A DNA stretch of 42,835 bases from a virus. Taxonomy: Duplodnaviria > Heunggongvirae > Uroviricota > Caudoviricetes. The translations under genes were made by a program, and so were the position numbers. The stretch covers positions 1 to 42,835 of IMG/VR virus record IMGVR_UViG_3300001336_000001. The stretch is one strand, 5' to 3'. The first letter of the stretch is position 1; each line of letters begins with the position of its first letter. The notes beneath the pieces were generated by a model. It saw nothing but the letters and a program-made list of their open reading frames with translations. It was not told the DNA's origin and searched no databases. This document shows, piece after piece, positions 8,428-35,557 of the stretch.

Positions 8428-8490
8428 GTACGATTAAGGTACGTGTGAGTGCTCCAAGGGGTGGTCAAAGGTAGACTCCGACCTGCCTTA
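8428..8490 (+). ncRNA. Three-hairpin small RNA family, copy 1
   Basis: TATCTTTG promoter at 8416-8423. GTAC/GTAC hairpin, middle hairpin, GGTAG-ACTCCGAC-CTGCC, then a T-tract. Confidence 0.6.
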
Positions 8491-8608
8491 TATTTTTTTT
8501 TGTGTGTGCTTATTTAGAATGATTATAAATTACAAAAAAGTTTGGTAGATTGGAAAATTATGCTTATATTTGTATCAGTTCTTTATTTATTAATTTAACA
8601 CTTTTGAT

Positions 8609-8821
8609 ATGGGTTTTACCGCACTATCTAAGATGCGCAACAAAGTTGTTTTTGCGCCGAAGGACATCGACCAAAAATTCTTCAAGCAGGACGATGTTAA
8701 TGAGCTAATTGAAATTGGCTACACTAAACTAGAGGCTATTGAGCTTCTGGACGTGTTATCCCACAGAACACTTGAGGTGGACGAAGTAGACCACTACGAG
8801 TACACAGAAAGCGACCATTAG
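8609..8821 (+). CDS. Small hypothetical protein, counter-oriented expression unit
   Basis: 70 aa. Own promoter TATATTTG at 8565-8572 and terminator AAGCGACC-ATTA-GGTCGCTT+T-run at 8809-8833. Confidence 0.7.
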   Translation: MGFTALSKMRNKVVFAPKDIDQKFFKQDDVNELIEIGYTKLEAIELLDVLSHRTLEVDEVDHYEYTESDH

Positions 8822-8841
8822 GTCGCTTTTTTTGTTTGGTG

Positions 8842-8861
8842 ATATACACAAATGTGTATTA
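8842..8861. repeat. 20-bp palindrome ATATACACA-AA-TGTGTATAT, variant copy
   Basis: ATATACACAAATGTGTATTA. Six further exact copies lie in the window. Confidence 0.85.
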
Positions 8862-8939
8862 AGGTTATTAACATTTTTTTGTTAATAACTAATCGAGTAA
8901 AAGTTTGGTAGATTAGAAAATTATGCTTATCTTTGTATT

Positions 8940-8996
8940 GTCGATATGGACGTGCTGACACTCACAAGGTGGTAGTAGAGTAGACTCCGACCTGTT
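8940..8996 (+). ncRNA. Three-hairpin small RNA family, copy 2
   Basis: TATCTTTG at 8928-8935. GTC/GAC hairpin, CTGACAC-TCACAAG-GTGGTAG, GAGTAG-ACTCCGAC-CTGTTT, T-tract. Confidence 0.65.
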
Positions 8997-9055
8997 TTTA
9001 TATTTTTTTTATGCGTAAACAAGAAAAACGACTACCTTTCGATAGTCGTTCAAAA

Positions 9056-9433
9056 TCAAACCCAATAAAACCCATCAATGACCTCCATAATCTCCAGCGG
9101 GATATCATTGATTACGCAAAGGTAATCAACGTAGTATTCGGACTTCTCCTCACCAAAATAATGATGGTGTTGCTCATAAACGGATTTGAACTTACCAAAC
9201 CCATTCAACACAAACGAACTAAACGCCTTAATGTCGTCATTCGAACCATTGTAAAGTGTTTCGAAGTACTCATCAGCGTCAATCTCGTTAGAATCATACT
9301 TAGCAGTAAGGGCTTCATAAACTGCAACACGCTCAGGTGTTAATTGCTCATTACCATAGTAAGGTGCAACTTTGTTAAACGCATCAACCTTACTAACATT
9401 CGCCTTAACGATTGGATATAATCTAACTCCCAT
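9056..9433 (-). CDS. Hypothetical phage protein
   Basis: Start MGVRLYP downstream of the promoter at 9472-9479. Confidence 0.7.
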   Translation of the reverse strand: MGVRLYPIVKANVSKVDAFNKVAPYYGNEQLTPERVAVYEALTAKYDSNEIDADEYFETLYNGSNDDIKAFSSFVLNGFGKFKSVYEQHHHYFGEEKSEYYVDYLCVINDIPLEIMEVIDGFYWV

Positions 9434-9633
9434 GATATAAAGTATTAAATTAAATAAATAAAGAACTGACACAAAGATAATATAAAATAAGATAACTACC
9501 AAATAAAATAGTATTTTTTTTTAGATTATTTCTATTTAAGTTTTTAAGCTAATTTAAGCACGTTTTTAAGTCAATCTATATGTAGATACCACAAATGGGT
9601 TAAACACACCTTAAACGCAAAATAAAGCACAAA

Positions 9634-9656
9634 AAAAAGCCCCTTTCGGGGCTTAT
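9634..9656 (-). terminator. Intrinsic terminator
   Basis: AAGCCCC-GAAA-GGGGCTT followed by a T-run on the minus strand, after gene 9658-10080. Confidence 0.85.
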
Positions 9657-9657
9657 C

Positions 9658-10080
9658 TTACACGGCACTAGCACAAGTCGGTCCGAGACCCCTACTAATA
9701 CTTTCCGAATCGGTTAACGTTCTACCGCATCTAATACATGACCCAGTGTGCATAACCTCGACATTTTTGTCCAAGAACTCGAATTGACCTTGTTCAACTT
9801 TATTAAGGACAAAAGCGATAGCAACAGCCGAAGGTGAATCAACAACTTGTCGTTTGTTGAAAATCTTACCATTAAAGTACGTACCTAAACGCTTGTAGTT
9901 TTGGTATTCAGTTTCCACTTTAACGTGTGTATACCATTTACCATTGAAATTTGAACGTGAAATAGCGTAGGTAAATTCCTTACCAGACTTCAATGACTTA
10001 ACGGTGAAATCAGCACCATTATTGTTTTTTTCAGCCATTAATACGTTAACTAGTGCAGCGGCTTTGATTAAATTTTTCAT
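9658..10080 (-). CDS. DUF6011-like protein with C-terminal Zn-binding motif
   Basis: GSCIRCGRTLTDSESISRGLGPTC matches the recalled DUF6011 C-terminus (CxxCGRxLTDxxSxxRGxGPxC). Confidence 0.7.
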   Translation of the reverse strand: MKNLIKAAALVNVLMAEKNNNGADFTVKSLKSGKEFTYAISRSNFNGKWYTHVKVETEYQNYKRLGTYFNGKIFNKRQVVDSPSAVAIAFVLNKVEQGQFEFLDKNVEVMHTGSCIRCGRTLTDSESISRGLGPTCASAV

Positions 10081-10210
10081 AGTAAATAATTTTAATTGAT
10101 AAATAAATAACGAATACAAATGTAAGTATAATATTTGAGATATGCAAATATAAAATAGTATTTTATTTATTTAGAATGATTATAAATAATAAGATATAAA
10201 AAAATATAGT

Positions 10211-10262
10211 GTAGGGTGGAGTCTACTCTACCGCTACCGTATTAAAGTATCAGCCCCTTTGT
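10211..10262 (-). ncRNA. Small RNA family, copy 3 (minus strand, 5' hairpin reduced)
   Basis: Reverse complement GGGGCTGATACTTTAATACGGTAGCGGTAGAGTAGACTCCACCCTAC. Promoter TACCTTTG at 10268-10275. Confidence 0.6.
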
Positions 10263-10326
10263 GTTAACAAAGGTAATAAAAAAAAACAACACTACCAAAG
10301 ATAATGTTGTTTTTTTTATGAAAATA

Positions 10327-10527
10327 TTAATTCATTAATATTTGATTAATTTCGGCTACTATTTTTTCGTTTTTCTTGATTAGTCGCTTTGTGTCTTTTA
10401 TCATTAATTCTAGGAAACATTTTTCGTTTTCATTTGCGGTTTTTAATTTTTCAGTAAAATCGATAAGCATTCGTTTTTGACGTGTCAAAAAATCATTTGC
10501 TAATTTTAAGTTAATTAATAAATCCAT
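10327..10527 (-). CDS. Small coiled-coil hypothetical protein
   Basis: 66-aa ORF with A-rich start context. Confidence 0.55.
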   Translation of the reverse strand: MDLLINLKLANDFLTRQKRMLIDFTEKLKTANENEKCFLELMIKDTKRLIKKNEKIVAEINQILMN

Positions 10528-10676
10528 AATTTTGTTTTTTAATGAGTTTAATTAATATACGGGCTAAGTTTTCATTTATAACAAAGTATTAATATTTTTT
10601 TTATTACCACGAAATTAGGGTAATTAAAAAAATTATATTATCTTTGTGTTTAGTTCTTAATTAAAATAGTATTATT

Positions 10677-10835
10677 ATGCAAAAGTATGTTAGTTACATA
10701 TTTGTTGTTTGTTTGTTATCGGGCATGACATCATTGTTTGGTATTTACCCGAATAGTGTTATTGATTTCCTATTGGGGTTTGGTATTTCATTTTTATTCT
10801 GGTGTGGTATGTTGGCACCAATGTTATCTGAATGA
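10677..10835 (+). CDS. Small two-TM membrane protein (52 aa), counter-oriented unit
   Basis: Hand translation MQKYVSYIFVVCLLSGMTSLFGIYPNSVIDFLLGFGISFLFWCGMLAPMLSE. TATCTTTG promoter upstream and AAGCGGA/TCCGCTT terminator at ~10858-10886. Confidence 0.65.
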   Translation: MQKYVSYIFVVCLLSGMTSLFGIYPNSVIDFLLGFGISFLFWCGMLAPMLSE

Positions 10836-10906
10836 TGGTTTGGTATTGTTAAATAATAAAAGCGGATTAATAGTCCGCTTTTTTTTGTGTTTATACGTGT
10901 GTGTGG

Positions 10907-10926
10907 ATATACACAAATGTGTATAT
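10907..10926. repeat. 20-bp palindrome copy
   Basis: ATATACACAAATGTGTATAT exact. Confidence 0.9.
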
Positions 10927-10933
10927 TGGGGTA

Positions 10934-11050
10934 TTAATCGTAAGTTTTATTCTTATGTTTAGACTTTCTATTATAAGTCTTTTTTGACTTATGAATAGAA
11001 TGTTTCATTGCTTGTTGAATTTCGTGTTGAGTAACTTGAATTGTTTTCAT
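10934..11050 (-). CDS. Tiny basic protein (38 aa)
   Basis: Hand translation MKTIQVTQHEIQQAMKHSIHKSKKTYNRKSKHKNKTYD. Confidence 0.5.
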   Translation of the reverse strand: MKTIQVTQHEIQQAMKHSIHKSKKTYNRKSKHKNKTYD

Positions 11051-11061
11051 GGTAATAAATA

Positions 11062-11307
11062 TTAAGGTTGTAGTAAAATATAAATACCTAACTCTGTAAT
11101 ATATACTGGGTCTAGTTCTAGTTGTTCGGCAATATCTTTTTCATTTTCATAAGCTTCAATAACATCGTTTTTATACATTGAAACATAGAAATAGTTATTA
11201 TCACATTGCTCGATAACATCAATAGCTTCCTCAAAGGTCATATCTTTTGTTAAGAATGTATCTTGATAAAGATTAAACGTTTCAATTGACTGTTCTGTAA
11301 ATTCCAT
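11062..11307 (-). CDS. Small acidic hypothetical protein
   Basis: Promoter at 11335-11342. Confidence 0.7.
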   Translation of the reverse strand: MEFTEQSIETFNLYQDTFLTKDMTFEEAIDVIEQCDNNYFYVSMYKNDVIEAYENEKDIAEQLELDPVYITELGIYILLQP

Positions 11308-11398
11308 AATATTTGTTTTAATTGGTTAACAACACAAAGGTAATAAAAAAAAATGACACTACCAAAAGATAGTGCCACTTTTTTTGTTCTTTATTTAT

Positions 11399-11731
11399 CT
11401 AATATGCACTTATGGGCATTTTTTGATTCTGTTCGTAGCTTTGACTTTCCCATTCAGTATCGGGGTTAGTCAATTCGTGAAAGTGTTTTTTAAGTCTTTC
11501 AGCGATTCTATCAAGCTTTGCTGCTTGTTTCTCTGTATGTGGTTTGTTAAACGCTCTAATCGTATCATTTGCGCAAATACGACCCAACATACCACCACCA
11601 AGGTAATTTTGGTATGCGGACATTTTTTGACCACTAAACCCAAAACGTGTTAAGTCTATTTCAATTCCACCACCTCTACTTGAAATTTCCAATCTCAATG
11701 TTACTTCTGAAAACTGAATTCTTTTAGCCAT
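11399..11731 (-). CDS. Hypothetical phage protein (SAYQNYLGGGMLG motif)
   Basis: Promoter at 11762-11769, glycine-rich conserved-looking motif. Confidence 0.75.
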   Translation of the reverse strand: MAKRIQFSEVTLRLEISSRGGGIEIDLTRFGFSGQKMSAYQNYLGGGMLGRICANDTIRAFNKPHTEKQAAKLDRIAERLKKHFHELTNPDTEWESQSYEQNQKMPISAY

Positions 11732-11868
11732 AATCTTATTGTTTTAATTGATTAACGAATACAAATATAAGAATAATATTTTACATTTCCAAATAAAACG
11801 ATAAAAAAAATGGAAACATTTCTGTTCCCATCTTTTCGTTCTTCATTTACCAACCTAAAACAACTGAC

Positions 11869-12126
11869 TTACACCGCAATAACCCAATCAGTAACTTCCC
11901 AATTCACACTTGATGTTACTGAATAACCTTTGGCACGCAACCTTTGTGCAACAATAGGCATATACATATATTCTTCAACACTCCAACCATACGCTGGTGC
12001 GCACTTACAAGTTTCAAACTTTGTGGTTAATGAACTACCACTCAACTCACGCTCGAATCTATCAACCAAATTTTGGATGAATTGTTCTTTTTTTTCTTGT
12101 GGGCTTAATGTTTTTACTTCTGACAT
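11869..12126 (-). CDS. Small hypothetical protein
   Basis: Promoter at 12153-12160. Confidence 0.7.
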   Translation of the reverse strand: MSEVKTLSPQEKKEQFIQNLVDRFERELSGSSLTTKFETCKCAPAYGWSVEEYMYMPIVAQRLRAKGYSVTSSVNWEVTDWVIAV

Positions 12127-12204
12127 AATAATTTGTTTTTAATTAGACAATACAAATATAAGGATAATATTTTACATTTCCAAATTATTCTTATATTTTT
12201 TTAT

Positions 12205-12390
12205 TTAACCAAAAAGTATTTTATATTGTTCTTGACTACATTCAATTAATTCTACTTCACATTTCTGTTCATCAGCCAATTCTTTTAGTACCGTATTAAT
12301 AAGTCTAGTTTCTGACATTTTAAAATCTTGTGAACATTGCTTACCTTCCCAATTTTTGTAACTCACTTTAAGATAATTTCGTTTTTTCAT
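12205..12390 (-). CDS. Small hypothetical protein
   Basis: 61-aa ORF in the minus-strand array. Confidence 0.55.
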   Translation of the reverse strand: MKKRNYLKVSYKNWEGKQCSQDFKMSETRLINTVLKELADEQKCEVELIECSQEQYKILFG

Positions 12391-12423
12391 GTTTTTTTGT
12401 TTTTTAATAGTAATACAAATAAA

Positions 12424-12606
12424 TTAGAAATTAATTTTCATTTGAGTACCAATTTCTTTTTTAGTCACTATTGGTTTAATTGGTTTATCAATAGCCAAAG
12501 TATTAGCATATAGACTTAGTAGTGCTTTAACTTCAGTTTTTGTGGGTTTATTTTTATAACCACAATGATTTGCTTTGTGTTTTTTACTATTAGGGTTATA
12601 ACTCAT
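12424..12606 (-). CDS. Small basic hypothetical protein
   Basis: 60-aa ORF in the minus-strand array. Confidence 0.5.
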   Translation of the reverse strand: MSYNPNSKKHKANHCGYKNKPTKTEVKALLSLYANTLAIDKPIKPIVTKKEIGTQMKINF

Positions 12607-12712
12607 AACTAGTCAAGATTAAAATTAAGTGGTTTAAGTGAATAACTATAACCAAACACCCAATTGGTAAAACCAACGACTTCCAATCTACCATGGGCAA
12701 CGTGTTCCAATG

Positions 12713-12940
12713 TTATATGGAAGTGAAGTAATCCACTAAATTAGACACTTCGCTTTCATCAGTTTTGTTATCAATCATCATCATTGGATATTCATTAGGT
12801 TTTATTTGTTCATAAACCAACCCTTTTGTAAAAATAGTCTCACCATATAGATTGGTTATATCTTCATTACACCTCCATATAACAACAGGTATATCCAATT
12901 GCTCCTGTTGTGCTTCTAATTTACTTTCTTCTGTATTCAT
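12713..12940 (-). CDS. Small hypothetical protein
   Basis: 75-aa ORF in the minus-strand array. Confidence 0.55.
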   Translation of the reverse strand: MNTEESKLEAQQEQLDIPVVIWRCNEDITNLYGETIFTKGLVYEQIKPNEYPMMMIDNKTDESEVSNLVDYFTSI

Positions 12941-13233
12941 ACTTTTGTTCTTTTAATTAAGTTTATATTGATTTCGCGCAACTGTATATACCTGCAACCG
13001 ATAGAACTCCATCAGCACCGATAAACAAATTACTTAGTTCCATATCAATTTTCTTTAATTAATAAACCAAATAGTAAAAATACAATCCCGAATGGGTTTC
13101 CACCGAATAACAGAACGAACCCGACAAGTGAAATGAAATACAACATAATATTGTTTTAATTGATTAACAATACAAATATAAGAAAAAAATACCGTTCTAC
13201 CAAATATAAAACGATATTTCTTTAAACTTTCTT

Positions 13234-13419
13234 TTAAATAATTTCAACCTCTTCAGGTTCAACACAGAACGCATTGTCTTCTTGGTCTAATACAACTACT
13301 AAACCATTTCTAAAGTCATCAACATGACCAACAAATTCCTCATTGTCTTCTGTTCTGTCTACTTGTACTGTATCACCAGTAGATAACTCATTTCCTTTTT
13401 TATCTAAAATCGCATTCAT
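13234..13419 (-). CDS. Small acidic protein, KOW/SH3-like barrel appearance
   Basis: LSTGDTVQV…FVGHV…LVVV…FCV pattern. Promoter at 13444-13451. Confidence 0.65.
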   Translation of the reverse strand: MNAILDKKGNELSTGDTVQVDRTEDNEEFVGHVDDFRNGLVVVLDQEDNAFCVEPEEVEII

Positions 13420-13503
13420 AATAGTTCTTTTAATTGTTCACAACAAAGATAAGAAAAAAATATCGTTCTACCAAATATAAAACGATATTTCTTTAATTTT
13501 ATT

Positions 13504-13803
13504 TTACCAAAACATTTGCTTGTTAAGTTTCACTTTGCTTTCAATCCACTTCATGATATTGTCAGCATGGTACGAAGTTGTAAGGTCTCCAAGAAAGAAA
13601 CTCAATTTACGGTCTGCATTAGTTTGTTCTACATCCACCTCAAGTCTATTCCATTCCTTTGCATTGCTTTGGTTTGAACCCTTGCGACTACCTTGAGAAA
13701 AATCCCATTCTTTTGCAATTACTGTTACTACATTCTTCTTTGTTTCAACGGTAATAACACCACCTCTACAAACTTCACCTAATTTCCATGTTTTTGTTGC
13801 CAT
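13504..13803 (-). CDS. Hypothetical protein, paralog of 21713-22015
   Basis: KTWKLGEVCRGGVITVET…KEWDFSQGSRKGSNQSNAKEW…DLTTSYHADNIMKW is nearly identical to the paralog. Confidence 0.8.
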   Translation of the reverse strand: MATKTWKLGEVCRGGVITVETKKNVVTVIAKEWDFSQGSRKGSNQSNAKEWNRLEVDVEQTNADRKLSFFLGDLTTSYHADNIMKWIESKVKLNKQMFW

Positions 13804-13878
13804 AATATTGTGTTTTAATTGTTCAATACAAAGATAAGTATAATATTCCAATATACCAAATATATTAGTATATTTCTT

Positions 13879-14187
13879 TTAAGAATAAAATACTCTTAAC
13901 TCATCATCAGGTTCAAGTCCAATGATAGATTCAAATTGCTCAATTAATAATACCTTATTTTGGTTCAAATATTTAAGCGTATTCTCAACATCTGAAATAT
14001 CGGTTGCTAGTGTATCACCTTTACCAAATTTAAACCATAACGATGCACCGCTTTTAGCTTCTATAGTTTCTTTTGCATGGCTCTCAACTTCTTTTAACTT
14101 AATTATTAACTTGTCAATATCACCATCTTTTAGGTAGTTAAACATTGTGTTGGTGCAAGAAAATGTGTATTGCGTAAGTGCTTTCAT
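13879..14187 (-). CDS. Hypothetical protein
   Basis: Promoter at 14211-14218. Confidence 0.7.
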   Translation of the reverse strand: MKALTQYTFSCTNTMFNYLKDGDIDKLIIKLKEVESHAKETIEAKSGASLWFKFGKGDTLATDISDVENTLKYLNQNKVLLIEQFESIIGLEPDDELRVFYS

Positions 14188-14246
14188 GATATATGTTTTA
14201 TTGTTCTCTACAAAGATAAGAAACTTTTATCGATACCCCAAATATA

Positions 14247-16309: not shown

Positions 16310-16485
16310 AACTAAATTGTTTTAATTGATTAACGAATACAAATATAAAACAATATTATTTAATATGCAAATATAAAATGGTATTTTTTAATTAACTTTA
16401 TTAACAATAATGTTGTTAATAACTCAATACAATTTTTATTGCTAAAAATTTGCATAAGTCAAATATAATCCTTATCTTTGTTATG

Positions 16486-16546
16486 TACCAATGAAGGTAA
16501 GGGCTGACATTCACAAGATGGTAGTAGAGTAGACTCCGACCTACCT
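16486..16546 (+). ncRNA. Three-hairpin small RNA family, copy 4
   Basis: TATCTTTG at 16473-16480. TACC/GGTA hairpin, CTGACAT-TCACAAG-ATGGTAG, GTAG-ACTCCGAC-CTAC, T-tract. Confidence 0.7.
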
Positions 16547-16624
16547 TTTATTTTTTTTTATTTAGAAAAAGAAAAGCACTCACTTTTGTGAATGCTTAAC
16601 TTCGTTATTTATTTACTAAAACTA

Positions 16625-17191
16625 TTACACCTCAAAAATTAACTCCTCACCATTGGTACGAATTTTCGCCATGCTTGATAGCTTAAAGTTCGTGAATGCA
16701 CTACTTTTAAGTTCTTTTTCTAAACGTCTTTTAGCAATGGTTAACGGACGTGAATTTACTTGTTTGTATTCACCTTTGGTGATGATTGTTTTGTTCAACC
16801 TCAAACCGAATATGTAAATTTCACCAGTTTCGTTATGCACCTTGATACACTCATTAATTTTAGTGTACGCATCAATTTGTCCTTGACTACGTTTTTTGTT
16901 TGGGTTGGTAAACGAATTGATTAATTCAACACGTGCTTTTTCCAACGTGATTTTGTCAATATCTGAATCAATTTTTGTAACGTCCATTGCTTTTAACGTT
17001 TCAACGTCTTTAGCTTTTGCGTTAGACAACTTCGCACCTGCGTTTACAAGGTTATTAGAAACCTCACCAAAACGATTGGTATAACCTTTAATTGAAATTA
17101 AAGATACACCAGTAGGTGATTTGTCGATTGCTGACTGCAATGCGTTAATTGTCTTTAATGCTTCGATTGATACTGAAATTTGCTTTTCCAT
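16625..17191 (-). CDS. Hypothetical phage protein, paralog of 7617-8237
   Basis: See the paralog. Promoter at 17222-17229. Confidence 0.8.
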   Translation of the reverse strand: MEKQISVSIEALKTINALQSAIDKSPTGVSLISIKGYTNRFGEVSNNLVNAGAKLSNAKAKDVETLKAMDVTKIDSDIDKITLEKARVELINSFTNPNKKRSQGQIDAYTKINECIKVHNETGEIYIFGLRLNKTIITKGEYKQVNSRPLTIAKRRLEKELKSSAFTNFKLSSMAKIRTNGEELIFEV

Positions 17192-17280: not shown

Positions 17281-18036
17281 TTACAACTTAATGATAAAGT
17301 CGTTATTTTCAAGGTTTTCCTTATTTACACCTTTAGTATTTTTACCTGTAAGATATTTATATTTCAACCCAACAATAACGTTTTTTTCGTCCAAAAATCT
17401 TAAATCATCTTCATCACCATTAACAACTTTATAACCCATGTATTTTTTAGGTAGTTCGTTTTCATTTTTAACCCCGAACACCATAGCAACGTTATGACCT
17501 TTACTCAATAAGTCAATACAAATATCTTTATTGTCTTCGCTCATTGAAAATGTTAAATGATAGTTTTTTGGTAGTTCTTTAGAAAAACGTACATAGTTCT
17601 TTGTATAGTCATAAAATTGAATTTTAGGGTGCAATTCAAAGATATTTTTACCACCTCTAACTTTAATTTTTTCAAATGGAATATCTGACGTACCATTCAA
17701 ACGAATAGTTGGAATGATATCAGTATCTTTGTGTTTTTTTGTGATGTTGGTAATTTCTTTATCCAACTTCAACATGAATTTTGTTCTATCAGCTAGATAG
17801 AATTCTGTTTTGTTTATTTTACCATTTTGTACTTTGTCAAAACGTGCAGCACCACTATTGAATAAACAAGCTTTTGCGCACCCCTTTGATGCGTGACTAC
17901 AAAGATTAATACCTTTGCTATTTTGCGTATGCGGTGCAAGATACATAATGTAAGTTATGTAACCTTTTTTTTCACCTTTAATTGTCTTATCATTCTTTGT
18001 AGACAATAAATCTTTTGGTATTCTGTAAATGCTCAT
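17281..18036 (-). CDS. GP88-like protein with a Cys cluster (radical-SAM/Fe-S-like barrel)
   Basis: NLCSHASKGCAKACL, IRLNGTSDI, QFYDYTK, YHLTFS and GDEDDLRFLD motifs recalled from phage GP88-like families. Confidence 0.55.
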   Translation of the reverse strand: MSIYRIPKDLLSTKNDKTIKGEKKGYITYIMYLAPHTQNSKGINLCSHASKGCAKACLFNSGAARFDKVQNGKINKTEFYLADRTKFMLKLDKEITNITKKHKDTDIIPTIRLNGTSDIPFEKIKVRGGKNIFELHPKIQFYDYTKNYVRFSKELPKNYHLTFSMSEDNKDICIDLLSKGHNVAMVFGVKNENELPKKYMGYKVVNGDEDDLRFLDEKNVIVGLKYKYLTGKNTKGVNKENLENNDFIIKL

Positions 18037-18186
18037 AAAAAATGTTTTAATTGATTAACGAATACAAATATAAAACAATATTATTTAATATGCAAGGAAT
18101 TTAGAAAAAAAAATACTTTGACTTATTAACATTAAAATTGTTAATAACTAAATTTGGAAATATGGGATATTATTATTAACTTTACA

Positions 18187-18250
18187 CCATGGTTATTAAC
18201 CCATGGTCTGGCACTCGCAAGGTGGTAGTAGAGTAGACTCCAACCTACCT
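18187..18250 (+). ncRNA. Three-hairpin small RNA family, copy 5
   Basis: CCATGG/CCATGG hairpin, CTGGCAC-TCGCAAG-GTGGTAG, GTAG-ACTCCAAC-CTAC. Variant promoter TAACTTTA. Confidence 0.65.
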
Positions 18251-18312
18251 TATATTTTGGACCAGAAATAAAATGGAAAATTATTTGGTTTATTAAATAA
18301 TTTTCCTTACCT

Positions 18313-19945: not shown

Positions 19946-20088
19946 AATATAATGTTTTAATTAATTAGACAAGACAAATATAAGAATATAAAATGATATA
20001 TCCAAATAAAATGATAAAAAAAATGGGATATATTTCTACATCCCATCTTTTCCGTTATCAATTAAAACTATACATTATGTATCGTTTG

Positions 20089-20157
20089 TAGGATACGAGG
20101 ACTCGAACCTCACATACACCTCATCGGTGCCGTACTAACCAATTATACTAGTATCCA
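20089..20157 (-). ncRNA. tRNA-like element with aberrant anticodon arm (pseudo-tRNA or tRNA mimic)
   Basis: Reverse complement TGGATAC-TA-GTAT-AATTGGTTA-GTAC-G-GCACC-GATGA-GGTGT-ATGT-GAGG-TTCGAGT-CCTC-GTATCCT-A. D-loop TGG and T-loop TTCGA are canonical. The anticodon loop is 5 nt and lacks U33. Confidence 0.65.
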
Positions 20158-24666: not shown

Positions 24667-24800
24667 AACTTATTGTTTTAATTAGACAATACAAATATAA
24701 AACAAAATAATTACATTTCCAAATTTTTAATGAAAATAATTTTTAAAAAAATATCTTATTTTATTTGGATATATGGAATATAATCCTTACCTTTGTTATG

Positions 24801-24861
24801 TAGCAATGATGCTAAGGGCTGACACTCGCAAGGTGGTAGTAGAGTAGACTCCGACCTACCT
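24801..24861 (+). ncRNA. Three-hairpin small RNA family, copy 6
   Basis: TACCTTTG at 24788-24795. TAGC/GCTA hairpin, CTGACAC-TCGCAAG-GTGGTAG, GTAG-ACTCCGAC-CTAC, T-tract. Confidence 0.7.
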
Positions 24862-24887
24862 TTTATTTTTTTTTGTTATGAAATAAA

Positions 24888-24916: not shown

Positions 24917-25801
24917 TTATACCATTACCAACCCCAACTTTTGCATTGTAAATTCAAAAGCATCGTTATTAGTTTTGTAATTAGTACCCATCATGATACT
25001 CTCATCACGACCATTCTCTCTGCGTGGTGCTGACTTCTCATGTGTAGTCCATGAAGTAACTCCACTAAACAACCCGAACGCATTCCAACCCTTCTGATTG
25101 GTTTCCTTCTCAATGTGGTTGTATAGCGAATCCATTGAGTTTAATGCACGTGTGGACAATTCGCTCTCATCCTTAATTGACATTTGACGGTCAAACCCTA
25201 ACAACGACTTAACCAACTCATCTCCCAACTTGCGTGACACTTCGGTCGATTGGAAACGCTTGTACGTTTCAGTCAATTTAAGGCTCTCTGCCAACGTCAA
25301 TTCAATTAACTGTGGTAATTCCTTAATGCGCTGTGTTAAACTCGCTGTATGGCGAAATTTGGACTGTCCACCTTTGTAGAACTTGTAAAACTGATTGTTA
25401 CAAGACATAACCAATTCACCAATACCTACTGACAACCCAGTACTACCATCATTACTGTCAATGATAGTAACATAACGCTTAATGCGCTCGCTACCAACCA
25501 TTGAATAACCCTCAACCGCTAGTTGAATGAAAACCTTGCGACCACCATTAATTGAACCCGCTTTTGATACGGACAATTCACCGAATCCTTCCATACCACG
25601 TAAAACCAACTCAACAATCTCATCATTTTGAGACACTGTATAACCTTCTTTACACGTGTTAATACACTCATCGGTTTTACTGTTAAACAACCCATAATAA
25701 GGTGTTCTGCGACCCGTTGGTGAAAACAACGCTTCCTTCTCAATGCGAAAATCCAAATCATTCGCTACCAAAATCTCTTGTACTCTCTGCTCAATACTCA
25801 T
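24917..25801 (-). CDS. DUF932-family phage/plasmid protein
   Basis: GYTVSQN…GSINGGRKVFIQL…DSNDGST…MSCNNQ…FRHT…NAFGLFSGVT pattern matches recalled DUF932 (TIGR03299-like). Confidence 0.75.
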   Translation of the reverse strand: MSIEQRVQEILVANDLDFRIEKEALFSPTGRRTPYYGLFNSKTDECINTCKEGYTVSQNDEIVELVLRGMEGFGELSVSKAGSINGGRKVFIQLAVEGYSMVGSERIKRYVTIIDSNDGSTGLSVGIGELVMSCNNQFYKFYKGGQSKFRHTASLTQRIKELPQLIELTLAESLKLTETYKRFQSTEVSRKLGDELVKSLLGFDRQMSIKDESELSTRALNSMDSLYNHIEKETNQKGWNAFGLFSGVTSWTTHEKSAPRRENGRDESIMMGTNYKTNNDAFEFTMQKLGLVMV

Positions 25802-25938
25802 AGTATAAAATTTTATTTGATTAATAACTGACACAAAGTTAAGCATTCTTTTTCATTCTACCAAATATAAAATAAGATTTTTTTCATTTTTCTTGTTATT
25901 TATATTCATTCTAAATAAGGTCATATAAAAAAATATAC

Positions 25939-25995
25939 TGTAGGATGGAGTCAACTCTCTCATATACTTATAATATACGACCCGTCTCAAGTGAC
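25939..25995 (-). ncRNA. Three-hairpin small RNA family, copy 7 (minus strand, diverged)
   Basis: Reverse complement GTC-ACTTGA-GAC GGG TCGTATAT-TATAA-GTATATGA GAGAGTTG-ACTCCATC-CTAC. Promoter TATATTTG at 26000-26007. Confidence 0.55.
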
Positions 25996-26064
25996 AATAC
26001 AAATATAAAAAGAAAAAACCACATATCCAAATAATATGTGGTTTGTTTTATAACTTTTTTTTAC

Positions 26065-27859: not shown

Positions 27860-27907
27860 TCAACACAATTAAACAAAAAAGCCACAAATTACTGTGGCTT
27901 TTTTTAT

Positions 27908-29693: not shown

Positions 29694-30095
29694 TTATGGT
29701 GTTACAAAATTATATAACAAATTCTCAACAACCAAACCCCATGATGCAGTTGGGTCATTTTTACTTTCACTAGGGAAATACTTAATTACCTCATTGATAT
29801 CACCAATAGTAGGGTTTAACCCCAAATCCATCGCCACCTTAACAACATCATCAACACTAATCGTTGGTTCATCATTAAATTCGGGATTATTTTGACATCC
29901 CTCATACCATAAGTCGGGGCAATCACTAACATCCATAACCAAATGACATGAAGCACAAACAATTTCTTCCGCACTAATATCGTGCAATAAGACATTACCA
30001 CAATTCCCACAAGTAACAATGTTTACATTAGCTAAGTCTTGTACTCGCTTCTGCAAATCAATTTGCTCATTTGCTAAATCTCTTTTTGTTTTCAT
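29694..30095 (-). CDS. Zn-ribbon-containing hypothetical protein
   Basis: CGNCG…CASC…CPD. Promoter at 30122-30129. Confidence 0.7.
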   Translation of the reverse strand: MKTKRDLANEQIDLQKRVQDLANVNIVTCGNCGNVLLHDISAEEIVCASCHLVMDVSDCPDLWYEGCQNNPEFNDEPTISVDDVVKVAMDLGLNPTIGDINEVIKYFPSESKNDPTASWGLVVENLLYNFVTP

Positions 30096-30179
30096 AATAA
30101 TACTGTTTTAATTAGACAATACAAATATAAAACAAAAAAACCACATATCCAAATAATATATGGTTTTTTTTTATTTTTT

Positions 30180-30446
30180 TTACATCCAACCTTGGTCAAT
30201 AATCACTGGTTTTCTTTCATGGTCTAGTTGCCAATTTTCATACCATTCACCCCATTCACCACGTCTCGACCTAGATACCGAAACAGTATCACCTAAATCT
30301 TCTTCCAAATGACGCTTAATGTTCTTTCTCAACTCAGCGTATGTTGGATACTGTATGGTCTTATATGGGCTTCTTTTTTTACCCATACGATATTCATTCT
30401 CACTATCCCTAGTTAACACTGTAATTTGTGGTTTAAACTTTCCCAT
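30180..30446 (-). CDS. Hypothetical protein, paralog of 23543-23818
   Basis: See the paralog. Promoter at 30476-30483. Confidence 0.8.
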   Translation of the reverse strand: MGKFKPQITVLTRDSENEYRMGKKRSPYKTIQYPTYAELRKNIKRHLEEDLGDTVSVSRSRRGEWGEWYENWQLDHERKPVIIDQGWM

Positions 30447-30569
30447 AATAATTCGTTTTATTTAATTAGACAATACAAATGTAAAGAAAAAAAGTGATAC
30501 CACCAAATTATAGTATCACTTTTTTATATTTATTTTATACTATCCACTAGTATATTGGTATCAAAAAAG

Positions 30570-30794
30570 TTACAGTTGTTTCAATTCAAACACTTCATCA
30601 CCATAACCATTATCTATAAGATAATCATCAATTGCTTCTTCACTATTATCACCCAAGATAATTTCTAAATCACCAAAAAGTACCAACTCACCATTTTCAA
30701 CAGAATACATTGTTATAGTTTTATAACCAGTTGTTTCTTCCACTTCACCAATTGATTGTAGTTGCTTTTCTACTACATAATAAATCCTTTTCAT
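30570..30794 (-). CDS. Small acidic protein
   Basis: Start MKRIY downstream of the promoter at 30822-30829. Confidence 0.7.
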   Translation of the reverse strand: MKRIYYVVEKQLQSIGEVEETTGYKTITMYSVENGELVLFGDLEIILGDNSEEAIDDYLIDNGYGDEVFELKQL

Positions 30795-30857
30795 AATAAT
30801 ATAATTTTTAATTAGACAATACAAATATAAAACAAATAAACCACATATCCAAATTAT

Positions 30858-31067
30858 TTATGCAGTATTTTCTAACATTTCCTTAAGTAAATTGAAATCG
30901 TGATTTAAATCATCTTCATTCTTATAAACGTAACTATCAAATGACCTTGGTGAATTATGTTCAACCTCAATTGAATGTCCGCCTATACTACCAACCGAAA
31001 TAATAGGTTTCAAAGATAATAAGATAGATATCTCATCCCTTAATGCTTTATTTATAAATTTAACCAT
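30858..31067 (-). CDS. Small hypothetical protein
   Basis: 69-aa ORF. Confidence 0.5.
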   Translation of the reverse strand: MVKFINKALRDEISILLSLKPIISVGSIGGHSIEVEHNSPRSFDSYVYKNEDDLNHDFNLLKEMLENTA

Positions 31068-31199
31068 ACGATAAATGAATTTATGATAGACTTAAAATAA
31101 TGGGTCCACAAACAAGGTATGGATTTTTGTAGAATTCATCCGTGGACTCATTGTTGTCTATCTAATTAAAACTATATTACAACCACCCTTATATCTTGA

Positions 31200-31466
31200 T
31201 TAGTAAATCCAAGTCTCAATAATCTCAACATCGTAATTGAGACCATCAATCTCAATACCAACTTCATAACTGTAACCACCGTCAAACAAGTCAGGAATCT
31301 CATCAAAGTTAAAATCATCAGCATCGAAATGACTACCAACAGCTTCAATAAACTTAGTCTTGAAATCTGCTTTACCAATCTCATCATTACTAACGTTAGC
31401 AATAACACCAATCATTGGACACTCACTATTTCCAACCTCCAATAATGCAAAACTCTTATTTTTCAT
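31200..31466 (-). CDS. Small acidic protein
   Basis: 88-aa ORF, co-transcribed with 31484-31762. Confidence 0.7.
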   Translation of the reverse strand: MKNKSFALLEVGNSECPMIGVIANVSNDEIGKADFKTKFIEAVGSHFDADDFNFDEIPDLFDGGYSYEVGIEIDGLNYDVEIIETWIY

Positions 31467-31483
31467 AATAATATTATTTTATA

Positions 31484-31762
31484 TTAATAAACACTTGTCA
31501 CATAACCAATGAAACATCCACTAAAATCTTCCATTGATTGGTTGTTAACCTCGGAAGTAAAATCACCAAGTTCCCAAACCTCGAAACGCTTCTCATCAGC
31601 AAAACTCGAATCTAAATCAATTAACATATCTCGAACTAGACCACTTTGATTGTATGGTTCATGACCACGTAAATCAAATACAGTACCTTCATGTTTTTCA
31701 AGTAATTCTCGTCCACCTTGACCGCAGCCAACAATTACAATAAACGTTTTAATTTTAGACAT
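31484..31762 (-). CDS. Hypothetical protein
   Basis: Promoter at 31790-31797. Confidence 0.7.
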   Translation of the reverse strand: MSKIKTFIVIVGCGQGGRELLEKHEGTVFDLRGHEPYNQSGLVRDMLIDLDSSFADEKRFEVWELGDFTSEVNNQSMEDFSGCFIGYVTSVY

Positions 31763-31843
31763 AACTTATACATTTTTAATTAGACAATTCAAAGGTAAGA
31801 AAAATAAGTGACACCACCAAATTATAGTGCCACTTATCTTTAA

Positions 31844-32197
31844 TTAGATACTGAAACCTTCACTTTCAATTTGGTCGCCTGAATGATACTTGTTCTGTGC
31901 ATAATAGTATGCTGTATTATCATACACCACAAAAGAATGTGTATCTGTTTTCCACCCATCAAATTTCTCAAATACACCCTCCTCATCAGTCTCACGCTCA
32001 TAAGTAACTGAACCGTTTATATAAACTTTAACCGAATGAATATCACCATTTGTTTTGATAAACTCCTGGGCTTGGTTTATAATCGAAATATCTTTATCAG
32101 ACAACTCCAATACAACCCTGTCAATCTCGAAACTATCAGAATAATCCCAACTTCTGAATGCAATTTCTAACTCGAATTTTTTAACTACTGAATTCAT
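31844..32197 (-). CDS. Hypothetical acidic protein
   Basis: Variant promoter TATCTTCG at ~32225. Confidence 0.7.
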   Translation of the reverse strand: MNSVVKKFELEIAFRSWDYSDSFEIDRVVLELSDKDISIINQAQEFIKTNGDIHSVKVYINGSVTYERETDEEGVFEKFDGWKTDTHSFVVYDNTAYYYAQNKYHSGDQIESEGFSI

Positions 32198-32272
32198 AAC
32201 TTATATGTTTTTAATTAGACAATACGAAGATAAATATATTATTTTATAATTCCAAATAAAATCGTATTTATT

Positions 32273-32545
32273 TTAGAGATTATTTGCACAACCCTCAACG
32301 GCAGTCTCAATACCTTCAAGGTACGCTGAATTCTCAACATCTACACCAGCTATGGCGTGTGCAAGAATCATCGCTTCAATACCATCCATTGCTGCATTGT
32401 ATAACTCATCCTCTTCATCCTCATTTTCGGTCTTCAACATTGCTGAATGGATTGAACCACCTTTACCATCTTTGTTGATAATGATTAGAATATTAAATAC
32501 TGGTAAGGTAATCATTGTGTTACCGTCTTTATCAATACTTTTCAT
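32273..32545 (-). CDS. Hypothetical acidic protein
   Basis: Variant promoter TATCTTCG at ~32573. Confidence 0.7.
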   Translation of the reverse strand: MKSIDKDGNTMITLPVFNILIIINKDGKGGSIHSAMLKTENEDEEDELYNAAMDGIEAMILAHAIAGVDVENSAYLEGIETAVEGCANNL

Positions 32546-32631
32546 AACTTATATATTTTTAATTAGACAATACGAAGATAAGAAAAAATAATGACACTAC
32601 CAAATTATAGTGCCATTATTTTACACTTTTT

Positions 32632-33324
32632 TTATACGAATTTTTTAGCCTTAGTGCCATGCACAATGATAGCAATGTTTTTAGCCTTGGTACTAGCACC
32701 CTTACACAAATTACAATCAATACATTGTACTCCATGCGTATAGTTAGGACACATAATCTCATTGTCCATTAACTCATTGTCATTTTTAACAACTCTAAAC
32801 GTTCTCCAACCTCTACCTTGCGCAACCTTAGCTTGCTCCTCGGTCTCTACACTAGCCATTGTTAAATCCTTAACAGAATCCTCATTGGTAGTTTCCCATT
32901 GGTGTGTGTAACTTGTATTGTTTTTAACAACACTTTTTAACCCAACTAAAATATCTGTAGGTAATGCCAATGGGTCTCCATATGCCCCAAATCTCATTTT
33001 TAACCCCTCAAAAATCGCATAACTATCTACCTTTGGATAGTTACCACGTTTCCATGCTCTAAACACACTTAATGGGGCTTGGTGTGTAATAACGTAACAC
33101 GCACCGCCAGTATGATGTCTCAATGGACAATCACCACATACTGCCGAATCATCACCACTTTTGATTGCTTGGTTAGGTTCAATTTCACCATGAAGAATCC
33201 ATAAACTAGCCATGTTACCAGTTTTAATGTTGTTACTTTCCAATGTAACAATACCAACAATAGGTGCACCGTTAATCATACTAGCACCCTCATAAACCAC
33301 ATAACCCTTAATTTCCTTGCTCAT
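32632..33324 (-). CDS. Cys-rich phage protein, radical-SAM/Fe-S-like (DUF7227-like)
   Basis: SNNIKTGNM, VCGDCPLR…GACYV, MRFGAYGDP, SYTHQW and CP…CIDCNLC motifs. Confidence 0.6.
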   Translation of the reverse strand: MSKEIKGYVVYEGASMINGAPIVGIVTLESNNIKTGNMASLWILHGEIEPNQAIKSGDDSAVCGDCPLRHHTGGACYVITHQAPLSVFRAWKRGNYPKVDSYAIFEGLKMRFGAYGDPLALPTDILVGLKSVVKNNTSYTHQWETTNEDSVKDLTMASVETEEQAKVAQGRGWRTFRVVKNDNELMDNEIMCPNYTHGVQCIDCNLCKGASTKAKNIAIIVHGTKAKKFV

Positions 33325-33416
33325 AATAATACTGTTTTAATTAGACAATACAAATATAAAACAAATAAACCACATATCCAAATAATATATGGTTTATTTT
33401 ATAAAATTATATTATT

Positions 33417-34067
33417 TTACTGTTCCTCAATCCAACGTCTGAAACCAATAACAACATCATCATTGTTCCACTTCCCCTCATCAGCACAATCCATAATATC
33501 CTCATAAATGAACTGTACAATGTCCTCCCAATTTTCGGGTAAATCCATACCCAACTTGGTAATTAGGTTTATGAAGACTTTCTCAATCTCATCTTTCATA
33601 GTTGGATTGTTAAACATTTGCTTTCTCCAATCTTTATCAGCTTCACTATATTCACCGTTTTTTTTCCAAAAACCAATATTCAATATATCATCAGCCTCAC
33701 CATGTGTAATACCAACCGACTCACAAAAGTTTTTGTGTTCTTCAATATCAAACTTTGCAATATCGAATAAATAATTCCTTTCACCATCAATCTCCTCATC
33801 ACCATCAATTGAGATAACATTACCTTGCATATCACATTTGATAGTTCCCCAACTACCCTCAAACTCATAGTTATACCCCTCACATGACTCAATAAATGCT
33901 TCCGATTGATAATCCACCTCCGAATCAGATAACGTTAAATTCATGCCGTTCTCAAAAGACAGAACAACTTTGCCATCAATAATATCAACACCCGATATCG
34001 ACCCCATTTCACACTTCAACATATCTAAACGTCTCTTAGTGTTGTTTAACTTGATTTCTGAATTCAT
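33417..34067 (-). CDS. Multi-module acidic hypothetical protein
   Basis: 216-aa ORF. Promoter at 34095-34102. Confidence 0.7.
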   Translation of the reverse strand: MNSEIKLNNTKRRLDMLKCEMGSISGVDIIDGKVVLSFENGMNLTLSDSEVDYQSEAFIESCEGYNYEFEGSWGTIKCDMQGNVISIDGDEEIDGERNYLFDIAKFDIEEHKNFCESVGITHGEADDILNIGFWKKNGEYSEADKDWRKQMFNNPTMKDEIEKVFINLITKLGMDLPENWEDIVQFIYEDIMDCADEGKWNNDDVVIGFRRWIEEQ

Positions 34068-34113
34068 AACTTATATATTTTTAATTAGACAATACAAATA
34101 TAAAACAAAATAA

Positions 34114-34401
34114 TTACTTATCCAAATATTCTTCCGAAATTTCTTCAATAAATTCCATGGGAATATCCAAATGATTCTTACAAATCTCAACCGCACTCAA
34201 TTCAAGTTCGTTGTCATCTACATAGTAGTAAATTTCATCATCAACATCAAACTCCTCATCACTATAATCACTAGCACTACCCATGTCCGAATTCAAAGAA
34301 TAATTCCCAATTCTAATAACTTGGTTCTCCCCAAACTCTGGGTTGTTAACGATGAATAATCGTGTTGGGTATTCCTTACCTTTATACTTAATGCTATCCA
34401 T
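34114..34401 (-). CDS. Small acidic protein
   Basis: Promoter at 34430-34437. Confidence 0.7.
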   Translation of the reverse strand: MDSIKYKGKEYPTRLFIVNNPEFGENQVIRIGNYSLNSDMGSASDYSDEEFDVDDEIYYYVDDNELELSAVEICKNHLDIPMEFIEEISEEYLDK

Positions 34402-34462
34402 AACCCTATAATTTAATAATTAGACAATACAAATATAAAACAAAATAATTACTTATCCAAAT

Positions 34463-34816
34463 TTATTTGAAGCTATTTTTAAACTTTTCTTCTTGCTCAA
34501 TGAAGAATATAATTTTTTCATCGGTGGTTCTAACCTCATTTCTCAACCTAACACTATCTAGTGGGTGTAAATCATCCAACCAATACTCAAATACTTTATC
34601 AATCCTTTCAACACTCCACGTATCAAATTCAGTTAATAACCTAAGTTCATACGGGTCAGCATCTAACCCATAATTAAAAGTGTAACCCAATGGTTTCAAT
34701 TCAATAAGTAATCGTTCCAATTCAGTATATGTATTATCACAATCCTCATTAAAACTATTTAATATTTTCTGAACCTCAATAGGTAAATCCTCAAATTTAT
34801 CAAATAAATCAACCAT
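34463..34816 (-). CDS. Hypothetical acidic protein
   Basis: Promoter at 34845-34852. Confidence 0.7.
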   Translation of the reverse strand: MVDLFDKFEDLPIEVQKILNSFNEDCDNTYTELERLLIELKPLGYTFNYGLDADPYELRLLTEFDTWSVERIDKVFEYWLDDLHPLDSVRLRNEVRTTDEKIIFFIEQEEKFKNSFK

Positions 34817-34887
34817 AACCCTATAATTTAATAATTAGACAATACAAATATAAAACAAAAAAACTATATATCCAAATTTATTTGAAA

Positions 34888-35211
34888 TTATTTTGAATGT
34901 TTCATAATACCCTTATATAATAACTTAATCTCCTCAACAGTTAAATTACTCTTCATTTGATTAAACCACTTGGAACAAGCAACAACATTATTATCAACAT
35001 ATCCCCTATCATTATCAACCCTATCAAATGTTAATTGATTCTTATCATCAGTAATGTGATTTAATTTAACTCCAGTAAAATAACAACGCTTGGTATTTAA
35101 TACACGCTTAACCCTATTGAAAGTTAAACCAAACTCAATACCACGACTCTTTGCTGAATTCTCCAATGCTATCAATTTCTTAGCTATTTTAATATCATCA
35201 ATGACTTTCAT
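34888..35211 (-). CDS. HNH/His-Me-finger-like small nuclease-fold protein
   Basis: CYFTG…TFDRVDNDRGYVDNNVVACSKWFNQMK is the DRxDN…GY…N…C…N variant of HNH. Confidence 0.6.
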   Translation of the reverse strand: MKVIDDIKIAKKLIALENSAKSRGIEFGLTFNRVKRVLNTKRCYFTGVKLNHITDDKNQLTFDRVDNDRGYVDNNVVACSKWFNQMKSNLTVEEIKLLYKGIMKHSK

Positions 35212-35352
35212 AATAAAATACTTTTATAATTAAACCCACACAAATATAAAACAAAATAATCTGACATCCAAATAATAACCACAATAAAAATAATTTATTT
35301 TTTTTACCAAAATAATTTGCATATATCATTTATTATTCTTACCTTTGTTATG

Positions 35353-35413
35353 TAGCAATGATGCTAAGGGCTGGTACTCACAAGGTACTTGGAGCGTAGA
35401 CTCCAACCTACCC
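35353..35413 (+). ncRNA. Three-hairpin small RNA family, copy 8
   Basis: TACCTTTG at 35340-35347. TAGC/GCTA, GGTAC-TCACAAG-GTACT, GTAG-ACTCCAAC-CTAC. Confidence 0.65.
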
Positions 35414-35487
35414 TATACTTTCCTAACAAAAAAATATATCCAATAAAATTTGCATATGTCAAAAATTATTCTTACCTTTATAATATA

Positions 35488-35557
35488 TACTCGACAAGGA
35501 ATTTTAAAAGGGCTGATACCATTACACGGTGTCAGGAGAGTGGACTACAACCTACCT
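35488..35557 (+). ncRNA. Small RNA family, copy 9 (tandem with copy 8)
   Basis: Variant promoter TACCTTTA at 35473-35480. CTGATACC-ATTACAC-GGTGTCAG hairpin and GTGG-ACTACAAC-CTAC. Confidence 0.6.

Follow-up and report, generated by a model that had tools for sequence, protein, structure and literature searches.

Nine Stand-Alone Genes of a Phage-Specific Family of Structured Small RNAs in the First 42.8 kb of a 287,855-bp Phage Genome

What does a phage gain from carrying nine copies of a short noncoding unit, each behind a promoter of its own, in one limited part of its genome? The question is raised by the first 42.8 kb (42,835 nucleotides [nt], referred to here as the window; G+C content approximately 30%) of a 287,855-bp phage genome with direct terminal repeats (IMG/VR record IMGVR_UViG_3300001336_000001), in which an initial annotation described a dispersed family of small RNAs (sRNAs) with three hairpins (H1, H2, and H3). 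To our knowledge, few small RNAs of phages have an assigned role, and hardly any of these come from phages of the Bacteroidota, a dominant phylum of gut and aquatic habitats that is without Hfq and ProQ. The comparisons reported here strongly support the conclusion that the nine copies are stand-alone genes of one phage-specific structured sRNA family, for whose role we present a hypothesis together with the explanations that compete with it.

The 14-mer GTAGACTCCRACCT is found without mismatch on the plus strand at 8471, 8980, 16529, 18233, 24844, and 35396, with two mismatches at 35540 (+), and on the minus strand at 10226 (one mismatch) and 25955 (two mismatches); shuffled sequences gave 2.0 ± 1.4 matches at up to three mismatches, and ACTCCRAC by itself has eight matches versus 1.3 expected. 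A covariance model (R1), made from twelve gapless copies (alignment A3), finds exactly these nine copies in the whole genome (E 6e-21 to 2e-7), in agreement with the places first annotated. They are confined to 8.4–35.6 kb, lie 0.13–10.5 kb apart on both strands, and form no tandem array among the repeat families of the window.

Each copy follows a promoter of the form TTTG, 20 nt, TAnnTTTG, the arrangement of the Bacteroidota housekeeping promoter. Both boxes are present at this spacing in 9/9 copies, as the annotation of host-type promoters had it, and end 3–5 nt before the annotated start of the RNA; in the copies at 18187 and 35488 the -7 box reads TAnnTTTA. The T-rich ends described earlier take the form of a T-run in seven of the nine copies; the remaining two have shorter T-rich tails, the 35353 copy ending in CCCTATACTTTCC and the 35488 copy in a shorter T-rich stretch. 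Reading of the sequences found no open reading frame (ORF) common to the nine, and because the length of H2 varies across the family out of frame, not in multiples of three, the RNA is considered non-coding. A short ORF whose stop codon is the UAG of GUAGAC was considered and rejected, being present in four close paralogues only and not family-wide. With boxes 20 nt apart, no shared ORF, conserved structure, and a predicted 3' end, the copies have the make-up of generic promoter-driven sRNA genes of Bacteroidota.

The surroundings bear out the early-region placement that had been proposed, in that the copies sit among small early-type cassette genes. The minus strand carries almost every small gene at approximately 10–35 kb, and its series of about 30 small genes (approximately 9400–35300), each with the same promoter and 5' untranslated region cassette (as read on the plus strand, TTAATTAGACAATACAAATATAAAAC...CCAAAT) and a hairpin terminator (repeat families D1–D10), looks from its sequence like a cassette-like early gene array.

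The family extends well beyond this genome, with about 90–120 distinct copies in phage contigs of IMG/VR. An exact scan of IMG/VR for GTAGACTCCRACCTRC matched at least 117 stretches, leaving at least about 100 copies after removal of duplicates, at least about 90 of them with a TAnnTTTG box 27–60 nt upstream or a GG-hairpin context; 14 G+C-rich matches were set aside as likely chance. Allowing up to four mismatches and requiring the promoter yielded 40 further copies, versus six for the reversed motif, and cmsearch across 86 sources gave 123 matches at E<1e-3. A 12-mer probe of 47 IMG/VR records detected 0–10 copies per record, in clusters, the multi-copy records being mostly 12–40% fragments of large genomes. 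Carrier phages range from 64 to 340 kb. One has been cultured: Tenacibaculum phage Larrie (ON950054.1, Cbastvirus, 77.5 kb), the sole match in a blastn search of a phage collection and a phage of a genus belonging to the Flavobacteriaceae, has four copies, which makes the role of the RNA directly testable. The copies lie at 16966 (+), 17026 (-), 18815 (+), and 19447 (+); three of them are oriented against every protein gene of the phage, and those at 16966 and 17026 converge with 3' tails that overlap as reverse complements, so that the two RNAs could, judging from their sequences, anneal through their 3' ends. The single copy of another complete phage (G436; 64 kb, 40.6% G+C) is immediately preceded by a TTGCTATACAC motif and not by a TAnnTTTG box (59489 and 59562); this motif, present five times in that genome, may be a phage-specific promoter.

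No catalogued family matches the RNA, in keeping with the initial annotation, which recognized none. At the gathering threshold, Rfam 15 reports two tRNAs elsewhere in the window only; at E≤10, copy 6 has only a chance snoR113 match of 11 bits, and a 4.7-kb stretch of another record (L029) with six copies has no match at any of them. Neither ARAGORN nor the Rfam tRNA model recognizes a cloverleaf at the copies in the window, and a literature search by motif string and by topic found no description of such a family.

The structural evidence comes from comparison between phages, because the folding energies of single sequences are no better than those of shuffles (z -1.5 to +0.7). From 5' to 3' the layout is an optional H1, GG (mostly within RGGG), the variable hairpin H2, a RAGR linker, the sequence GUAGAC-UCCRAC, a short 3' stem, and a CUUAUA(U)n tail. 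H2 is 12–24 nt long and essentially free in sequence, yet its pairing is retained. Among 52 distinct H2 hairpins (<75% alike), 83% beat shuffles in folding (p = 1.4e-6). A test of the closing pair that involves no folding, comparing the nucleotide after the leftmost GG with that before the 4-nt linker, gave C-G 44, U-A 37, U.G 3, and C.A 1 (Fisher p = 2e-19). In the covariance-model alignment all seven H2 pairs change on both sides, 88% of H2 cells are paired, and double-change cells number 231 versus 68 ± 11 in shuffles, with 0/500 shuffles as high and slid controls collapsing. Covariation in H2 is thus strong, and the frequent G.U pairs indicate that the structure belongs to the transcribed strand. 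RNAalifold, applied to a raw MAFFT alignment, recovered H3 alone, because H2 is misaligned there.

Other parts of the annotated structure fare less uniformly. H1 is present in most window copies, and 22 distinct leaders of at least 12 nt fold better than shuffles (p = 0.008); across the family it is optional, about 20% of copies having ≤4 nt before the GG. The ACTCCRAC loop, described as nearly invariant, is indeed conserved, but the near-invariant core is wider than the loop and reads RAGR-GUAGAC-UCCRAC. In 124 copies the linker consensus is N-A-G-R, and R10, A11, and C12 after GUAGACUCC are 83–94% conserved (R10 a purine in 94%, A11 an A in 83%). The constancy of GUAGACUCC is partly a product of how the copies were selected and not independent, since it served, with up to one mismatch permitted, as the search anchor for this tally.

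H3 differs from H2 in the kind of support it has. Its main form (form I) pairs GUAG with CURC around the loop ACUCCRAC and shows wobble-type changes only, with no double compensatory change, so that the compensatory structure claimed for the family applies strongly to H2 and not to this form. In 18 copies (form II) the stem is moved by two nucleotides and reaches up to 6 bp, pairing GUAGAC with GUCUAU around the loop UCCRACAC; one compensatory change, GUGGAC/GUCC, occurs here. A hairpin that presents UCCRAC is therefore kept by two different pairings, which implies that the GUAGAC-UCCRAC sequence itself must matter beyond pairing. Mimicry of the 16S 3' tail (anti-Shine-Dalgarno sequence) was considered and dropped, the form II copies being without the CCUACCUU part.

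The 3' ends are more variable. Roughly half of the family ends in CUUAUA followed by a T-run. In some phages the tail forms pairs with a UAUAAG that lies downstream, and in one subgroup a 5' GGGGG pairs with a 3' CCCCC. Cross-tabulation of linker against tail fits an extended H3 (A-U, G.U, and G-C) but without covariation, and a mutual-information scan for tertiary pairs (GG with loop CC, GGG with tail CCU, and GAG with CUC) gave subfamily signals only. Variants in which GG becomes GUG or C8 becomes A occur without a compensating change.

Gene context shows that the RNA is not the leader of a following gene. For 87 copies an ORF was available on each side: 45 run antisense to the two neighbours, 27 are co-oriented with both, and nine and six lie at divergent and convergent junctions, respectively. 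Certain positions are nevertheless fixed: a convergent copy lies 73–145 nt past the stop codon of a DUF932 gene in 8/9 loci, a co-oriented copy lies 106–146 nt upstream of a DUF6011 gene in 6/6 loci, and GP88 and SprT-like genes recur beside copies across phages. As the same neighbours recur, the paralogues are old and individually conserved, not recent duplications. The ten proteins that flank copies in the window match DUF932, GP88, DUF6011, or nothing in Pfam.

Is the RNA a copy of something in the host? An exact 21-mer was found in 2/185,579 species genomes, both times on contigs of metagenome-assembled genomes, one of which has three copies while the other looks like a chance match. A core 15-mer, searched on either strand, occurs in 2/401 sampled Bacteroidota genomes (the reversed control gave seven matches), and since each of the two has 2–3 copies on a single contig, we read these contigs as phage DNA. 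The same sample holds no CRISPR-like arrays of the core, whose near absence argues against mimicry of a CRISPR repeat or of a host antitoxin sequence.

This result bears on the precedents that were first invoked, pseudo-ToxI antitoxin mimics and solitary-repeat RNA anti-CRISPRs, both of which need a host RNA of like sequence, and neither of which is sustained. The RNA anti-CRISPRs known as Racr are reportedly solitary phage repeat units that copy the host CRISPR repeat. Like them, the RNA described here is a small non-coding phage product, sometimes multicopy; it is encoded among early or anti-defence genes, stands alone with neither spacers nor cas genes, and has been suggested to titrate a protein of the host that binds RNA. 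Unlike them, its core is not a repeat in the sampled Bacteroidota genomes. With ToxI and pseudo-ToxI it shares a short structured phage RNA in repeated units that could neutralise a protein. ToxI, however, consists of tandem 34–36-nt repeats cut by the adjacent ToxN, whereas the present units are dispersed single units with promoters of their own and without a counterpart in the hosts sampled, and no tandem repeats of about 34–36 nt and no type III toxin (ToxN, AbiQ, CptN, or TenpN) were found by Pfam among the ten flanking proteins. A structurally unrelated host toxin might still be the target.

Further known RNAs offer partial likenesses. FopS/GibS are said to be multicopy intergenic small RNAs on the chromosome of Bacteroides thetaiotaomicron; they too are small non-coding stand-alone genes with a -33/-7 Bacteroidota promoter, paralogous copies, and a hairpin with a U-rich 3' end, but they are host-encoded and conserve a single-stranded seed, whereas the phage RNA is phage-specific, unrelated in sequence, and conserves a junction and a hairpin. 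RNAs C and D of phage T4 are likewise small, structured, abundant-looking phage RNAs without an assigned function, but single-copy, within a tRNA cluster and in one lineage, in contrast to a multicopy RNA found across phages of 64–340 kb.

Approximately 20 near-invariant nucleotides, maintained in otherwise unrelated phages, with as many as ten copies, and not found in the host chromosomes searched, point to a strong common selective pressure and a single conserved target. We tentatively favour, at somewhat less than an even chance, an abundant early RNA that acts in trans by binding one conserved host factor, the copies supplying dose. On this hypothesis host RNA polymerase would make an RNA of about 55–75 nt from the promoter of each copy; the RNA itself would be the product and would act at an early stage of infection; a single highly conserved factor, most probably a protein or ribonucleoprotein of the host that Bacteroidota have in common, would recognize the surface formed by the invariant nucleotides of the junction and loop; and several copies together would supply enough RNA for this factor to be titrated or re-programmed, following the logic of 6S, CsrB, or a decoy. 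A decoy or sponge for a protein, as initially suggested, is possible and is our leading guess. That the partner is a host factor rather than a phage one is suggested by a blastp comparison of three complete genomes (G000, Larrie, and G436), which have only the alpha and beta subunits of ribonucleotide reductase and thymidylate synthase (ThyA) in common.

A more specific version of this trans-acting hypothesis, which we hold to be doubtful, is that the RNA represents a new class of phage RNA effector, whose GUAGAC-UCCRAC surface, possibly T-loop- or elbow-like with the 5' GG, captures a universal Bacteroidota factor in the first minutes of infection, as a takeover or anti-defence tool common to lytic phages of 64–340 kb. 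The captured factor would be a protein of translation, of RNA processing, or of immunity. Identification of the partner could bring to light a new mechanism of anti-defence or takeover that is based on RNA, or else a new class of small ribozyme or aptamer. New in the present analysis are the negative result in host genomes, the two registers of H3, the closing-pair test that does without folding, the DUF932/DUF6011 microsynteny, the four Larrie copies, and the lack of a shared phage partner by blastp.

Several considerations weigh against a dose-dependent host-factor ligand. The ends of the RNA have been deduced solely from promoter boxes and T-runs, and the binding factor is hypothetical. By the 12-mer probe several complete jumbo phages have one or two copies, and several jumbo phages have a single copy, so that high dose is not universal. 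The fixed positions beside DUF932 and DUF6011 genes could mean a local role in cis. A protein of about 100 amino acids (alignment A5) lies within approximately 0.5 kb of the RNA in 27 loci of one subgroup, and blastp lacks the sensitivity to rule out a phage partner that evolves quickly. Finally, a 45-nt core with some 20 invariant positions would be equally in keeping with a small ribozyme or an aptamer.

Two alternatives are of equal standing, and both are unlikely in our estimation. The RNA could be a base-pairing riboregulator whose loop and junction (ACUCCRAC, with a CUCC core) serve as a seed for GGAG sites in host or phage RNAs; among the few Bacteroidota mRNAs that bear a Shine-Dalgarno sequence is rpsU, a possible target. 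The conserved nucleotides do occupy a predicted 8-nt hairpin loop, a common seed position, and the C-rich loops of Firmicutes sRNAs, which pair with G-rich ribosome-binding sites, provide a precedent. Against this, 399/401 Bacteroidota genomes are without a sequence identical or complementary to the 15-nt core, no excess of words of at least 9 nt identical or complementary to the conserved region was found elsewhere in the 288-kb phage genome (seeds of 6–8 nt lying beyond the reach of word tests), and some 20 invariant positions far exceed what a seed needs.

The second is a cis-acting transcription element, either a put/nut-like antiterminator or a 5' stabiliser, that would drive antisense transcription into convergent early genes or insulate cassettes. 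It would explain why the module always lies directly after a promoter, why over half of the copies point against their neighbours, and why the convergent copy keeps its distance from the DUF932 stop; moreover, the H3 stem is weak for a terminator, and a T-run is lacking in roughly half of the family. HK022 put and lambda nut sites resemble the RNA in having two hairpins with conserved unpaired nucleotides directly 3' of early promoters. Those sites, however, act in cis on the operons that follow, whereas over half of the phage RNA copies face away from any gene and only 27/87 are co-oriented with both neighbours. Both minus-strand copies in the window have a T-run and then a separate promoter for the next gene, the T-rich tract after the hairpin in most copies suggests a short product, and an insulator has no need of about 20 invariant nucleotides across unrelated phages.

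Slightly less probable is a new class of small ribozyme or ligand aptamer, for example a sponge for a signalling molecule or a fold like the tRNA elbow. The core is compact, and many of its unpaired nucleotides are invariant whereas the stems vary freely, as would suit such an RNA. In sequence, U7-C8-C9-R10-A11 may be likened to U54-psi55-C56-R57-A58 of a T-loop, with the invariant 5' GG as a putative analogue of D-loop G18-G19, and in form II the last pair of a 5–6-bp stem comes immediately before the pentad, as in a T-arm. The purine at R10 and the A at A11 fit this likeness, but 17% of copies are without A11, and the GG-to-GUG and C8-to-A variants are uncompensated. In addition, no ribozyme, riboswitch, or tRNA-like family in Rfam matches even at E≤10, ARAGORN is silent at the loci, and a promoter-ribozyme unit without cargo has no obvious purpose.

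We give little credence to the idea that the RNA is the partner of a fast-evolving small phage protein encoded nearby, as a ribonucleoprotein or an antitoxin-like pair. A candidate is the protein of about 100 amino acids already mentioned, which lies tail-to-tail with the RNA or directly upstream of it, for example at L013 5403–5696 (-), L027 3028–3327 (-), and L020 6130–6441 (+). Its subgroup consists mostly of single-copy records, including several jumbo phages, and its RNA is longer, being closed by a GGGGG/CCCCC stem and carrying an additional AU hairpin. The protein has no Pfam family and no homologue in the 287,855-bp genome, and its structure model, although confident (pLDDT 86), matched no fold in PDB or the AlphaFold clusters. 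No candidate is common to the three complete genomes compared, and the neighbours in the window (DUF932, GP88, and DUF6011) differ from copy to copy.

A pure DNA element (a binding site, origin, or recombination site without RNA function), which dispersed repeats in a cassette-rich region and a palindrome just upstream of four copies (TTATTAACA-N-TGTTAATAA) might suggest, is highly improbable, since position and orientation behind the promoter are constant, the G.U-rich covariation fits one strand only, and hairpin pairing is kept despite changes in sequence.

The nine genes are arranged as follows. sRNA gene 1 (8392..8501, +) has its -33 TTTG at 8392–8395, its -7 box TATCTTTG at 8416–8423, and a predicted RNA start at approximately 8427; it is the weakest copy (covariance-model match 8457–8492, 32.6 bits), with H1 GUAC/GUAC, a divergent H2, a GGUAG/CUGCC stem around ACUCCGAC, the motif at 8471–8486, and a T-run to 8501. 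sRNA gene 2 (8904..9010, +; 61.2 bits) has its -33 box at 8904–8907 and -7 box TATCTTTG at 8928–8935, followed by H1 GUC/GAC, H2 CUGACAC/GUGGUAG, the motif at 8980–8995, where the 3' strand CUGU is all wobble, and a T-run to 9010. On the minus strand, sRNA gene 3 (10198..10299; 48.8 bits; -33 box 10299–10296, -7 box TACCTTTG 10275–10268) has no clear H1, a motif at 10226–10211 with loop ACUCCACC, and a T-run to approximately 10198; it is co-oriented with a DUF6011 gene by Pfam (9658–10119), which it precedes by 146 nt.

The next three genes score among the highest. sRNA gene 4 (16449..16559, +; 73.7 bits) comprises a -33 box at 16449–16452, -7 box TATCTTTG at 16473–16480, H1 UACC/GGUA, H2, the motif at 16529–16544, and a T-run to 16559; it is antisense to both neighbours and convergent with the ORF at 16625–17191 (-). 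sRNA gene 5 (18153..18258, +; 70.1 bits), divergent from a GP88 gene by Pfam (17281–18036, -), has a -33 box at 18153–18156, -7 box TAACTTTA at 18177–18184, H1 CCAUGG/CCAUGG, the motif at 18233–18248, and a short T-run. Nearest to the local consensus is sRNA gene 6 (24764..24874, +; 74.3 bits), with its -33 box at 24764–24767, -7 box TACCTTTG at 24788–24795, H1 UAGC/GCUA, the motif at 24844–24859, and a T-run to 24874; it converges with a DUF932 gene (24917–25846, -).

sRNA gene 7 (25927..26031, -; 60.8 bits), with its -33 box at 26031–26028 and -7 box TATATTTG at 26007–26000, has H1 GUC/GAC, an H2 (UCGUAUAU/GUAUAUGA) that is wholly different in sequence with its pairing retained, and a motif at 25955–25940 whose GUUG...CUAC stem contains one U.U mismatch. 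sRNA gene 8 (35316..35425, +; 72.4 bits; -33 box 35316–35319, -7 box TACCTTTG 35340–35347) combines H1 UAGC/GCUA, H2 GGUAC/GUACU, the linker GAGC, the motif at 35396–35411, and a tail, CCCUAUACUUUCC, without a long T-run. In sRNA gene 9 (35449..35568, +; 47.0 bits; -33 box 35449–35452, -7 box TACCTTTA 35473–35480) a long unstructured leader precedes H2 CUGAUACC/GGUGUCAG and the motif at 35540–35555, GUGG...CUAC around the loop ACUACAAC.

Two palindromes recur in the window. The AT-rich TTATTAACA-N(6-15)-TGTTAATAA occurs at 8333–8365, 8865–8888, 16398–16422, and 18123–18147, approximately 5–27 nt 5' of the -33 box of four sRNA genes and between divergent promoters; its sequence would suit an operator or a terminator that works in both directions. 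The 20-nt palindrome ATATACACAAATGTGTATAT (family D20) is present seven times, at 8834, 10899, 18555, 26323, 35775, 36185, and 36750, and looks like a separate regulatory or protein-binding site. Elsewhere in the window, ARAGORN calls a tRNA-His (anticodon ATG) at 20088–20157 (-), which is below the threshold of the Rfam tRNA model and may be an odd or degenerate tRNA, and four 57-nt direct repeats (D19) at 40403–40644 adjoin an ORF of 429 amino acids at 40845–42134 (-).

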